Below the pieces are notes generated by a model, which was not told the DNA's origin, ran no database searches, and saw nothing but the letters and a program-made list of their open reading frames with translations. This document shows, in pieces, positions 1 to 21,449 of a DNA stretch of 25,524 nt; position 1 is the first letter of the stretch, and each line of letters begins with the position of its first letter. The DNA comes from a virus (Duplodnaviria > Caudoviricetes). The position numbers were made by a program, and so were the translations under genes. The stretch lies in IMG/VR virus record IMGVR_UViG_3300005805_000437, positions 1-25,524 of that record, one strand, 5' to 3'.

Positions 1-330
1 CTTTGGATCTACGTTAGGCGTAGCCTGGTTTGCTTGAGTTTCCACACCGAATACATCGGCATAGTCTTCAAGCCATTTTGATACAGACTCTTCAGTTGGG
101 TCTATATCCTGTGGGATAAATGCAGCAATTTTGCCGTTTACCCCGCGACTAGCGAGGGCGTCTTTGATTGCTCTGTCTCTATTTTGTTTTGCAATAGAAT
201 CAAACTGAGCCTTTAGTTCAGCCAGTTCTTTTTCTTTTTGCTTGTTTGCTTTACGCAACTGTTTGACGAGATCGTTACCATCATTTGATGGTGTATCAAA
301 GTCGTCTTCTTCGTAGTCGTAGTTGGACAT
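1..330 (-). CDS. Probable capsid scaffolding protein, truncated by window edge
   Basis: Not in ORF track. Translated by hand from ATG at 330: MSNYDYEEDDFDTPSNDGNDLVKQLRKANKQKEKELAELKAQF...; open to the edge. AAGGGAG SD upstream; acidic N-terminus plus coiled coil. Function is inferred. Confidence 0.65.
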   Translation of the reverse strand, partial: MSNYDYEEDDFDTPSNDGNDLVKQLRKANKQKEKELAELKAQFDSIAKQNRDRAIKDALASRGVNGKIAAFIPQDIDPTEESVSKWLEDYADVFGVETQANQATPNVDPK

Positions 331-16448: not shown

Positions 16449-16728
16449 GAGAAGAATAGATACCGCAACTAGGCACGCCGTAAGGCAACGCAACTACCGA
16501 AGGGTGAGAGACCGAGCTTTGACTAGGTTAGCCAACCTCTACCCAAACCTATACAAAGAACTCTTAGAGGAAGAGAGGGCGAAAGATGAGGCTGAGGGCA
16601 AAGTTTGGCTTGATATTGGTGGGCGTACTAACGCTGGTGTGGATAAAACCTCACCCAACAGGAACTCCAAAGCTCCCAAACGATCTCGTTATCGAATCAA
16701 GGCACGCAACTTGGGAAGAAAAAAATGA
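16435..16728 (+). CDS. Basic hypothetical protein
   Basis: 97 aa, GGAGG SD; 3' half overlaps the transglycosylase gene. Confidence 0.7.
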   Translation: MGAVERRIDTATRHAVRQRNYRRVRDRALTRLANLYPNLYKELLEEERAKDEAEGKVWLDIGGRTNAGVDKTSPNRNSKAPKRSRYRIKARNLGRKK

Positions 16729-17002
16729 CAACAGAAGAATCGCCAAGGCTTACGCTTCTGCGGGGTGGGGGTGGAGAGGAAGAGAGTGGTTCTGCCTCCA
16801 CGATTTATGGACCAGTGAGAGCAGGTTTGACCACACCGCAACCAACCAACAAGGTAGTTCAGCTTTCGGAATCGCTCAACTTCTTGGAGAGAGAAGTCCA
16901 AACCCTAGAATCCAGATTCTACGAGGTCTGCGTTACATTGAATCTCGTTATGGGACTCCTTGTCGAGCGAAAGCTCATTGGGACAAGTATAGATTTTACT
17001 GA
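16586..17002 (+). CDS. Membrane-anchored lytic transglycosylase (SLT/lysozyme-like fold)
   Basis: N-terminal hydrophobic anchor; CLHDLWTSESRF (catalytic Glu), SSAFGIAQ, YIESRYGTPC motifs of actinobacterial-type transglycosylases. Confidence 0.85.
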   Translation: MRLRAKFGLILVGVLTLVWIKPHPTGTPKLPNDLVIESRHATWEEKNDNRRIAKAYASAGWGWRGREWFCLHDLWTSESRFDHTATNQQGSSAFGIAQLLGERSPNPRIQILRGLRYIESRYGTPCRAKAHWDKYRFY

Positions 17003-17011
17003 GGAGGAAGA

Positions 17012-17629
17012 GTGCTAACAGGCGTATCACTATTCGCTGGTGTCGGCGGCTTTGACCTAGCTATGGAACGCAACGGGGTAAAGGTTGTAGCCACAGTTGA
17101 GATAGATAAGAAGTGTAATGAAGTGTTAGCGAAACAGTTTCCTAACGCTAAACAATTTACTGATGTAAAGACAGTCACAGGAAAGGAACTAATAGATGTC
17201 GGATTCAATCCAGCAAATGGAATTATTACCGGAGGATTCCCCTGCCAAGATCTCAGCGTGGCTGGAAAACGCGCTGGTCTTGCTGGCGAAAGAAGCGGGT
17301 TATTCTGGGAGATTAGAAGACTTGTGGAAGAGACGCAAGCAGAGTGGTTCATCCTCGAAAATGTCCCTGGTTTATTATCCTCTAATGGAGGGAAGGACTT
17401 TGGAATCGTTCTCGGGGAGATGGCCGACCTCGGGTATAGTATCGGGTGGCGAGTGCTTGATGCTCAGTACTTTGGAGTACCCCAGCGAAGGCGCAGAGTC
17501 TTCATCGTTGGCAACCGTTCTGGAAACCCAGAACGTATCCTCAAAGTATTATTTGAGCGCAAAGGCGTGCGAAGGAATACTACGCAGGACCAACAGGCGA
17601 GGCAAGAGTTTGCCGGAAGCATTGAATAA
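17012..17629 (+). CDS. C5-cytosine DNA methyltransferase, catalytic part (motifs I-VIII)
   Basis: LFAGVGG, GFPCQD, ENV, QRRRRVF; GAGGAGG SD. Confidence 0.93.
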   Translation: MLTGVSLFAGVGGFDLAMERNGVKVVATVEIDKKCNEVLAKQFPNAKQFTDVKTVTGKELIDVGFNPANGIITGGFPCQDLSVAGKRAGLAGERSGLFWEIRRLVEETQAEWFILENVPGLLSSNGGKDFGIVLGEMADLGYSIGWRVLDAQYFGVPQRRRRVFIVGNRSGNPERILKVLFERKGVRRNTTQDQQARQEFAGSIE

Positions 17630-17666
17630 TGCTTTGGTTCAACAAGTCGCGCAGGGCGCAAACTGA
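17196..17666 (+). CDS. Alternative-frame methyltransferase subunit (M.EcoHK31I beta-like)
   Basis: 156 aa ORF nested in another frame, own AAGGA SD 8 nt before ATG, KYYLSAKACEGILRR motif. Confidence 0.7.
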   Translation: MSDSIQQMELLPEDSPAKISAWLENALVLLAKEAGYSGRLEDLWKRRKQSGSSSKMSLVYYPLMEGRTLESFSGRWPTSGIVSGGECLMLSTLEYPSEGAESSSLATVLETQNVSSKYYLSAKACEGILRRTNRRGKSLPEALNNALVQQVAQGAN

Positions 17667-18144
17667 AACTGACTTTGAGACTTGGGTGGAAGGTGGAGTT
17701 GTGCCAACGCTAAATGCTTTTGATAATGGAGATGTAAGGGCTACAACAATAGTATTTCACCCTCACAGAACTGATGGTGTAAGACTACAAGGTGAAACCA
17801 TAAATACTTTGACAGCTTTTATGGGTACAGGAGGATTGAATACGCCAATGGTAGCAAGTATTCAGAACACAGTTATAGGTAGGTCAGACACCGCTGGGCC
17901 ACAAGGCAAGGGCTACTCAGAAGAAGGAGAGCCTATGTTTACTATAGATACTACAAGCCCTCACGCAGTAGTTAGTGATTCTTCAGTAAGAAGACTTACA
18001 CCTACCGAGTGTGAAAGGTTACAAGGATTTCCTGATGGATGGACAGAGGGACAGAGCGACACTCACAGATATAAACAAATGGGTAATGCCGTAGCTGTGC
18101 CTGTTGTAGAGTGGCTAGTATCTGGTATAGTTGAGAATTGCTAG
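17629..18144 (+). CDS. C5 methyltransferase C-terminal part (TRD region plus motifs IX-X)
   Basis: RRLTPTECERLQGFP and YKQMGNAVAVPV; TAATG-coupled to the catalytic part. Confidence 0.9.
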   Translation: MLWFNKSRRAQTETDFETWVEGGVVPTLNAFDNGDVRATTIVFHPHRTDGVRLQGETINTLTAFMGTGGLNTPMVASIQNTVIGRSDTAGPQGKGYSEEGEPMFTIDTTSPHAVVSDSSVRRLTPTECERLQGFPDGWTEGQSDTHRYKQMGNAVAVPVVEWLVSGIVENC

Positions 18145-18171: not shown

Positions 18172-18216
18172 AATAACCCCGCAGGTCAAGAGTGCTAACT
18201 GCGGGGTTATTTATTT
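18172..18216. terminator. Probable bidirectional intrinsic terminator
   Basis: 13-bp perfect stem 18172-18184/18199-18211 with A/T-rich flanks, between convergent operons. Confidence 0.8.
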
Positions 18217-20030: not shown

Positions 20031-20439
20031 CCGGTAGTTCAGGCCAGTTCTTATCAAGAACCATAATTGCTATGGCGCTGTAGTTGAGTAGGTCTACAAA
20101 GGAATCTCTAAGTGATTCATTAGATGGCTTGACGCCACTATCAAGTAGGTTATTTATCCTTGCTACCTTGTCCCACATACGAACACGTAGTCCATTGAGT
20201 GGGCCACCAGGTGAGCGAGCCACGTTTAGGGGTCCATAATCTTTATGCTTTCGTAACAAAAGAGTTCCTGCGGTATCAAATACCCGCCACATATCTTCTA
20301 CAAACTTATCATCTATCTTCTTATTGGCATTGGTTTGCAGGTTATTGTCCCACTCTTGTAATCTATCGAGACTATTATCATCCCCATATCCGTCAATAAT
20401 ACTGCTGCCTCTTGAAGATCCTTTTTCTTGCTCACTCAC
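20017..20439 (-). CDS. DUF1599 / nucleotide modification associated domain 1 protein
   Basis: KHKDYG...RMWDKVARINNL...ESLRDSFVDLLNYS pattern. Confidence 0.8.
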   Translation of the reverse strand: MSEQEKGSSRGSSIIDGYGDDNSLDRLQEWDNNLQTNANKKIDDKFVEDMWRVFDTAGTLLLRKHKDYGPLNVARSPGGPLNGLRVRMWDKVARINNLLDSGVKPSNESLRDSFVDLLNYSAIAIMVLDKNWPELPDDTH

Positions 20440-21080
20440 TTTGCTCCCCCTACTAGGTTGGCTAATTGTTCTCTACCCTCTGCCAGGTAAAAGTCCGTTA
20501 TGTCCATACCTGGTGGTAATTGTACTATTTGTGAGTTTAGTACCTCACTTGCGACACGCCGAGCAAAGTCTGCTCCAGGATTAGTGTCTTTATCTTCTCT
20601 TGTGTCGTTATCTCCGATGACATAGATGACATCAAAGCCAGTAAATAACTTGGCATAGAAAGGTTTCCAAGCTGCTACTCCTGGTACACCAACAGCAGGA
20701 ATACCTATCTCATTCATAACGATTGAATCAAACTCACCCTCGCAAATAACTATACGATAACTATTCTCCATTGTGGCTGTGACATTGTAGAGATGGCTCT
20801 TCTGACCTATCGGTGCGCCATACTTAGGCTTGCCTTCATCAAGTCTTCGGAACTTAAAGCCAACACACATATCTAAAGCTGTAAAATATGGAATAGATAT
20901 CCAACCTTCATAACCTTGATGGCCTTCTATTGGATCTGTAATAACTCCAAGCCTGTACTTTGCAGCAGCAGCCTCAGATATTCCACGTCCTTCTAGATAT
21001 GCTAGAGCCTCTGCGCTTATGCTTTGACTGTACCTTTCCGCCGCCTCGTTCAACGATTTCGACTGCGTAGTTGAGAGCAT
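20436..21080 (-). CDS. DNA primase, Toprim catalytic part
   Basis: YLEGRGI, KPKY, ICEGEFD, GDND, DITD. Confidence 0.9.
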   Translation of the reverse strand: MLSTTQSKSLNEAAERYSQSISAEALAYLEGRGISEAAAAKYRLGVITDPIEGHQGYEGWISIPYFTALDMCVGFKFRRLDEGKPKYGAPIGQKSHLYNVTATMENSYRIVICEGEFDSIVMNEIGIPAVGVPGVAAWKPFYAKLFTGFDVIYVIGDNDTREDKDTNPGADFARRVASEVLNSQIVQLPPGMDITDFYLAEGREQLANLVGGAK

Positions 21081-21351
21081 CCTTAAACCCCATCTCCTCG
21101 TTCGCCATTACTACATCTACTGCTGAACCACCCTTACCGCAAGTGTGACAGTAATATAAATTGTTATATGTATCTATCACTGCGCTACGCCTAGAGTCAT
21201 CGTGCATACAACACTTGACTGATAGGTTTGAACCATACTTCACTTCACCAGCGTAATGCTGGACTATCAAGTCTATGGGGATTGCGTTTGCATCAGAGGC
21301 GCCTTTGCGTTTCGACTTACGAACCACCCTGGACCAGTCTTGTGCTGGCAT
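20974..21351 (-). CDS. DNA primase CHC2 zinc-finger part
   Basis: CCMHDDSRRS...YYCHTCGKGG; probable start ATG 21351 after the AAGGAG SD. Confidence 0.85.
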   Translation of the reverse strand: MPAQDWSRVVRKSKRKGASDANAIPIDLIVQHYAGEVKYGSNLSVKCCMHDDSRRSAVIDTYNNLYYCHTCGKGGSAVDVVMANEEMGFKDALNYAVEIVERGGGKVQSKHKRRGSSISRRTWNI

Positions 21352-21449
21352 CCACAATCTCCTTTGCAGTAGCCGTGAAGTTCTTCAGCTTTATCGTAGC
21401 TGCCTCGGAGATTAAAGTCTCCAGCAACTTGACATTCATTGCAGATCAT
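21273..21449 (-). CDS. Small Cys/His-rich protein (58 aa)
   Basis: Not in track. MICNECQVAG...HGYCKGDCGCQHK...; ATGA overlap with the resolvase stop. Confidence 0.65.
   Translation of the reverse strand: MICNECQVAGDFNLRGSYDKAEELHGYCKGDCGCQHKTGPGWFVSRNAKAPLMQTQSP

Follow-up and report, generated by a model that had tools for sequence, protein, structure and literature searches.

Here, we describe a phage locus that probably specifies one orphan C5 cytosine methyltransferase (MTase) from three genes, whose products would assemble into a single enzyme with a likely role in multi-sequence anti-restriction methylation. We put the probability of this reading, which draws on sequence comparison and structure modelling, at roughly two in three. 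It is the best explanation for what is seen at the locus and in its relatives, namely open frames, conservation, selection on the nested gene, shuffling of modules and insertion as an accessory element. The locus lies in a 25,524-nucleotide stretch of DNA (the window), a virus record of 25.5 kb with an estimated completeness of 64%. The window contains genes for terminase, primase, DnaB, RusA and WhiB, and because it encodes WhiB we infer an actinobacterial host. The sequencing runs that match the window best are mainly lake and freshwater metagenomes. In RNA runs (X18-X20) the locus occurs as mere contig fragments, mostly from relatives, and these runs are hence uninformative on expression.

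Three genes in three frames

A first reading of the DNA (the sequence-only reading) had proposed one cytosine MTase written over three frames, as a catalytic chain (A), a nested chain (B) and a third chain (C). This layout was recovered in the frames and at the coordinates claimed (Table 1). The placement of motifs I-VIII in gene A holds as well, since A matches PF00145 over positions 2-169 (E 5e-56); its profile also matches residues 15-174 of M.HhaI (E 1e-37), and the catalytic PCQ occupies residues 77-79. Across A and C together the features of a C5 MTase (PF00145) are present, with motifs I-X, the catalytic PC, ENV, QxRxR and the invariant columns. In one related contig (L004:2551 and L012:2735) a stop follows in A right after the catalytic PC, so that either this copy is broken or its sequence contains an error.

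Table 1. Features of the three-gene locus in the window
Feature	Position	Strand	Basis or remarks
Shine-Dalgarno (SD) of gene A, GAGGAGG	17001..17007	+	sequence; duplex -10.9 kcal/mol vs generic anti-SD
Gene A, catalytic chain, motifs I-VIII	17012..17629	+	GTG start, 205 aa, short variable tail
SD of gene B, AAGGA, internal to A	17183..17187	+	8 nt upstream of B ATG
Gene B, nested chain	17196..17666	+	ATG, 156 aa, +1 frame vs A
TAATG stop/start overlap, A to C	17627..17631	+	sequence; contigs of X1, X3 and X4 bridge
Gene C	17629..18144	+	ATG, 171 aa, +2 vs A; PF00145 256-321, E 2e-15
Putative target-recognition modules in C, three in tandem	about residues 1-42, 43-76, 77-115	+	module census
Motifs IX and X in C	IX from R121, X at N153	+	invariant columns
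13-bp perfect hairpin between converging genes	18172..18211	.	inverted repeat I4; likely bidirectional terminator

The TAATG at which A ends and C begins had been named as a possible assembly error. Gap-free contigs of two studies exclude this. Contigs of X1 (17456-17877) and X3 (17456-17678) span the junction with 0 differences, and those of X4 (17503-17707) span it with 6 substitutions and no gap; X1 and X3 belong to one study, which is possibly the source of the window itself, and X4 belongs to a second. The break is real. The same type of junction, TAATG or TGATG, is found in three relatives (L030, L031 and L073).

The wider comparison used 92 loci, the window and 91 from IMG/VR, of which 85 have a usable A core (the other seven were dropped) and 62 are non-redundant at 97% identity. 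Among these 62 viral loci, window included, A and C are separate genes in 52 and fused in four, B and C are fused in one, and five end before motif IX. The start of C falls within -60 to +15 nt of the A stop in 48 of the 52 split loci, and the remaining four look broken. The frame offset of C against A is +1 in 39 split loci, +2 in 11 and 0 in two, and it differs even between the close relatives L030 and L034. This variable offset argues for re-initiation over one programmed frameshift; in the window, C would be translated by coupling at TAATG. A tree made by a quick method interleaves fused with split forms, and likewise the two offsets (the fused L059 groups with L069 at an SH-aLRT of 97), so the boundary between A and C is labile. 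The three-gene layout occurs in an isolated phage too, the mycobacteriophage Beem, as gp123, gp124 and an unannotated B.

The nested gene and its predicted place in the enzyme

Gene B, which extends 37 nt beyond the A stop in the window, has conserved features at W76-G80 and E94-P96 and three conserved C-terminal helices. It has no match in Pfam or NCBIfam, no useful match in the PDB by sequence or profile, and zero Foldseek matches with its model at E <= 0.001; in the ESM Atlas only viral clusters without names were recovered, with recognition under its mark. Weak matches link B to PHROG 16143 (E 1.5e-7) and 1008 (E 7e-7), both labelled DNA methyltransferase.

The sequence-only reading had counted a closed nested frame in homologs as evidence against itself. 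The +1 frame is instead open in 91 of 91 loci, 80 of them collected using A and not B, and encodes 153-253 codons. In 61 aligned sequences this frame contains 0 stops over A codons 71-192, whereas 420 are found upstream and the +2 frame contains 327. When the synonymous codons of A were resampled, the frame stayed open in 5 of 20,000 trials, so its openness exceeds chance. Some open +1 windows (3/49) occur in one of six control genes, and in single-chain MTases the +1 frame is closed by 11-13 stops.

Selection acts on the same frame. From 512 pairs of 60 sequences, which are not independent of one another, dNN/dNS in the B frame is 0.17 (bootstrap CI 0.09-0.31), and the controls gave 1.86 for the region upstream of B and 1.55 for the +2 frame; L054 was excluded from the codon alignment and one further gapped row from this test. 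Changes that affect both A and B are depleted within the set of A-altering changes, and the ratio is lowest over A codons 166-192 (0.07), a variable part of A. The suppression of synonymous variation that had been proposed as a check was found, with A-synonymous changes that alter B down from 0.55 to 0.24. The A frame itself has a dNN/dSN of 0.09 within the overlap. The start of B varies between ATG, GTG and TTG among relatives and the SD shifts with it. A candidate start with a duplex energy of <= -4 is present in 62 of 62 loci and in 35% of 107 control starts, a comparison biased towards B because the best candidate per locus was taken. As judged by these comparisons B is a real, conserved gene whose own frame is subject to purifying selection, and the claim of a nested 156-aa reading frame with its own SD stands. 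B would be translated from this internal SD.

The family is large. A profile of B collects 6,488 protein clusters at 50% identity, and by tblastn 177 records of phages and 531 of plasmids contain B. In 80 GTDB loci, which had been selected by a B pattern, the +1-frame B shares the region of motif VIII with A in 80 of 80; motifs I-X lie on one chain in 47, two are split, one is rearranged and 30 have no detected C. This suggests that the nested gene is the constant part and the A/C split an addition at the level of lineages. SpSL1 cds15 contains an intact nested B with an SD (E 9e-24). According to the accessible part of PMC6755750 this gene methylates phage DNA at 102 of 113 sites, with the motif given as RCGRC in the text and as RCRGC in the table and in GenBank. 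Thus, a gene that bears B has, as a whole, been reported active. In phage P1, dmt (record MH445381, L092:2261-2758) harbors an intact, unannotated B-family ORF that spans 165 codons of the +1 frame. The Faecalibacterium phage Toutatis (L098:2260-3552) shows an apparent motif I-like sequence after motif X, as in a circular permutation, and an apparent frameshift in its MTase ORF joins motifs IV-VI to B.

B has no motif IX. Folded alone, only its C-terminal helices form, and most of the N-terminal 100 residues are of low confidence. Residues 101-131 of B align weakly with the segment that follows motif VIII in a single-chain MTase (hhalign E 0.007, probability 5.6%), and the E value against a second such enzyme was 0.11. 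A comparison covered 43 MTases, taken from plasmids and from a sample of genomes, some of the genomes having been chosen for having B. An in-frame pattern for the post-motif-VIII segment, defined after the sequences had been viewed, is present in none of nine MTases with B, whereas 18 of the 34 that lack B have it (Fisher p 0.006); by HMM score the separation is weaker (1/9 and 8/34). B likely supplies the segment which single-chain enzymes carry directly after motif VIII, and in this position it may connect the large domain with the part of the enzyme that holds the recognition domain and motif IX.

Natural fusions connect B to the rest of the enzyme. B is fused to motifs IX-X in L007 and P0035, and among the best 150 family members nine proteins consist of B and motif IX without motif X. 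These fusions tie B to the enzyme; the fold of the L007 fusion, at a pLDDT of 40, was set aside. The three-chain modelling that had been suggested passes, with an ipSAE of 0.83 for A, B and C against 0.11 for the best of three controls, a contact agreement between runs of at least 82% and a partner pLDDT of at least 74. The ipSAE mark was passed by 116 of 157 solved pairs and by 2 of 215 mismatched pairs, rates that apply only roughly in this case. The predicted contacts place B78-81 against A145-148, where B might bind the edge strand of the catalytic domain, and also bring B to the N-terminus and motif IX of C. Since the score may recall solved single-chain MTases, it shows likeness and not binding in a cell. 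Assembly of A, B and C into one enzyme is thus a prediction of the model.

Known systems and competing explanations

Overlapping and divided C5 MTases have been described before. M.EcoHK31I is an alpha/beta enzyme (YGGCCR; PMC2836561, PMC3404938) whose nested beta chain carries motif IX and is needed for activity (PMC2836561). The locus resembles it in having a second chain, written in an alternative frame, that lies entirely or for the most part within the catalytic gene, and the family members composed of B and motif IX match the beta layout. As far as the accessible parts of these papers go, M.EcoHK31I has its recognition region and motif X on alpha and motif IX on beta, whereas here all of these lie on the third chain C. 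With motif IX on C and the post-motif-VIII segment on B, B is not the beta chain in content. A search of the plasmid collection did not recover M.EcoHK31I, and the plasmid hit H146, considered as a candidate for it, proved to be a single-chain MTase. M.AquI (CYCGRG) is a two-chain enzyme with motifs I-VIII split from IX-X (PMC3404938), and the locus likewise has I-VIII on one gene and a variable region with IX-X on the next. In contrast, the accessible description of M.AquI contains no nested chain, and C of the window carries tandem shuffled modules at a labile A/C boundary; the window adds a selected third gene that is predicted to bind both chains.

The sequence-only reading had seen a combination of both architectures in a heterotrimer. 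The nested frame and the split genes are indeed combined, and three genes with a predicted A-B-C complex fit a heterotrimer; the equation of the nested chain with M.EcoHK31I beta did not hold as regards content. The combination of nested-chain and split-gene layouts appears to be new, lacking one defining feature of M.EcoHK31I and going beyond M.AquI. The nested overlap as such is already in print for MM1, Tn5252, the S. thermophilus phages and M.EcoHK31I, to judge from the accessible parts of the sources. In the 5093 group of S. thermophilus phages a total two-frame overlap in C5 MTase genes was reported, with reference to MM1 and Tn5252 (PMC5601072), and the part of that paper available gives no role for the nested products. 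The pneumococcal phage MM1 (ORF13/ORF14) and P0092 possess a nested +1 gene of the B family (E 2e-30 for MM1 ORF14 against the B profile, and E 7e-27 for the P0092 nested gene) but differ in having motifs I-X on one chain and two genes in all. Split methylases are also described from mycobacteriophages. Corndog genes 6 and 7 form one in which an N-terminal methylase gene precedes a gene with C-terminal helices and coding potential in the overlap was noted; two products, a frameshift or a hop were left open, and mass spectrometry did not detect the methylase products (PMC4351075). Compared by description alone, Corndog differs in that the accessible part of this paper describes no third chain. 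The insertion with an out-of-frame HNH in ShiLan (PMC11855218) is a different phenomenon. A three-chain C5 MTase was not found in the literature covered, which included the accessible parts of PMC11855218 and PMC2884959 and reached subscription papers poorly; the papers found cite two natural multi-chain C5 methyltransferases, with two chains each.

Other explanations of the locus have to be weighed. A and C might form an M.AquI-like two-chain enzyme, with B a real but accessory protein (a regulator, inhibitor or chaperone) that is dispensable for catalysis. All ten motifs are found in A and C, the N-terminal 100 residues of B fold with mostly low confidence alone, and 47 of the 80 genome loci have motifs I-X in one ORF. 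In addition, the purified methylase polypeptide of Tn5252 is reportedly active in vitro, from which the nested product could be dispensable. Against this stand the B-bearing enzymes without an in-frame post-motif-VIII segment, the natural fusions of B to motif IX or IX-X, and, as far as PMC2836561 could be consulted, the need of M.EcoHK31I for its nested chain. We consider an accessory B unlikely, at about one chance in six.

A joining of A and C by programmed frameshifting or slippage, which would leave an enzyme of two chains (AC and B), seems less probable still. In 39 of the 52 split loci the two genes share about 20 nt, the SD of C is weak (-3.5), fused AC forms stand beside split ones in the tree, and a frameshift was among the options for Corndog (PMC4351075, accessible part). 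However, the offset varies, even between L030 and L034, no conserved slippery run was seen at the A/C junction, and the +2 loci, the window among them, have a stop-start overlap with an ATG. That the TAATG reflects an assembly error or pseudogenisation, with B a by-product of the codon structure of A, is largely refuted and highly improbable. Some relatives are broken (L004/L012, L006, L033, L080 and L081) and one control gene has open +1 windows, but the break is bridged by contigs of two studies, 48 loci have three clean genes, the B frame is under selection that peaks over the variable part of A, and the +1 frames of single-chain MTases are closed. We thus prefer one enzyme assembled from the products of three genes.

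A more far-reaching version of this three-gene reading has about even odds in our view: the enzyme would be the first natural three-chain cytosine MTase, B would be an obligatory structural subunit in a very large family of phage and mobile-element enzymes that are annotated as single genes and include P1 Dmt, and a free module chain would allow specificities to be exchanged at the level of proteins, between phages in a co-infection or by way of additional cassettes. Should B prove essential, the annotation as single-chain enzymes would be wrong for thousands of MTases in phages and prophages, P1 dmt would conceal a further gene, and cloning or codon-optimising such MTases would silently abolish activity. 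The locus is a large natural case of stable dual-frame coding over a catalytic core, and as a 1.1-kb system it is suited to module-to-sequence mapping and split-methyltransferase engineering.

Recognition modules, the cassette and restriction

As predicted, the gene joined to A by TAATG carries motifs IX-X, and its proposed TRD (target-recognition domain) consists of three putative modules in tandem, each of about 35-40 aa. A census by motif patterns found 46 combinations in 57 loci, with number and order of modules varying, and by these patterns the modules are shuffled at the DNA level. C5 MTases of Bacillus phages (SPR, H2 and others) are orphan enzymes whose tandem TRDs confer several specificities and protect against several restriction systems (PMC8936443, PMC12707154, accessible parts). 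By analogy with these enzymes, each module of C may act as a TRD that recognises a DNA target. The enzyme would then methylate several sequences and shield the phage DNA from host restriction. Unlike the Bacillus enzymes, which are described as single polypeptides, modules of the window type are spread over two chains family-wide: at least one lies on the tail of A in 37 of the 52 split loci, and in the window all detected modules are on C. C is hence not a pure specificity subunit. Of the proposed exchangeable specificity subunit, the exchange is supported by the reshuffled modules; the separate subunit is qualified by the modules on A and by the fusion of A and C in some relatives. K-mer depletion in the window revealed no target sequences.

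Judging by gene content in relatives, the MTase forms an accessory cassette, with a transglycosylase-like gene on one side and a terminator on the other. The comparison covered 30 relatives of the upstream gene; the MTase is present in six and absent in 19, and five are too short to tell. The empty allele L272 (59-72) lacks only 17016-18133 and joins 17015 to 18134 via about 12 other bases; other relatives have different inserts or none at this site. The downstream hairpin, which was not called by a terminator scan, is present in L272 and thus lies outside the inserted cassette. Neighbours of the cassette are the transglycosylase-like gene, a Zn-ribbon gene, a 127-aa gene without an assigned family and endonuclease VII. 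By Pfam and PHROG profile matches no restriction gene was recognised among them, and since the flanking genes persist in relatives without the MTase, none is the cognate restriction gene. The earlier claim that no such gene is adjacent is upheld, and the co-inherited cognate endonuclease of a type II restriction-modification system is absent here.

An exact 12-nt direct repeat occurs at 17008-17019, over the A start, and at 18188-18199, in the loop of the downstream hairpin; its 9-nt core is found twice in 5 of 91 related loci. An insertion scar was considered and rejected, because L272 keeps the terminator copy and has its junction elsewhere. The repeat resembles half of the CIRCE operator.

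The window strongly avoids restriction-type palindromes, which fits restriction pressure. CATG is missing (0 against about 72 expected), TTAA occurs 13 times against about 97 and GATC 46 times against about 112 (both-strand counts halved), and AGCT and GGCC are at about half of expectation.

Two further overlaps were seen in the window. A 97-codon ORF (16725-17018, +), without a family match in Pfam and PHROG-type profile searches, overlaps the transglycosylase-like gene (16586-17002) out of frame and ends over the A start. The primase (20436-21357, -) is present as two overlapping ORFs, one of 127 aa that matches primase profiles in their N-terminal part and one of 214 aa that matches the core.
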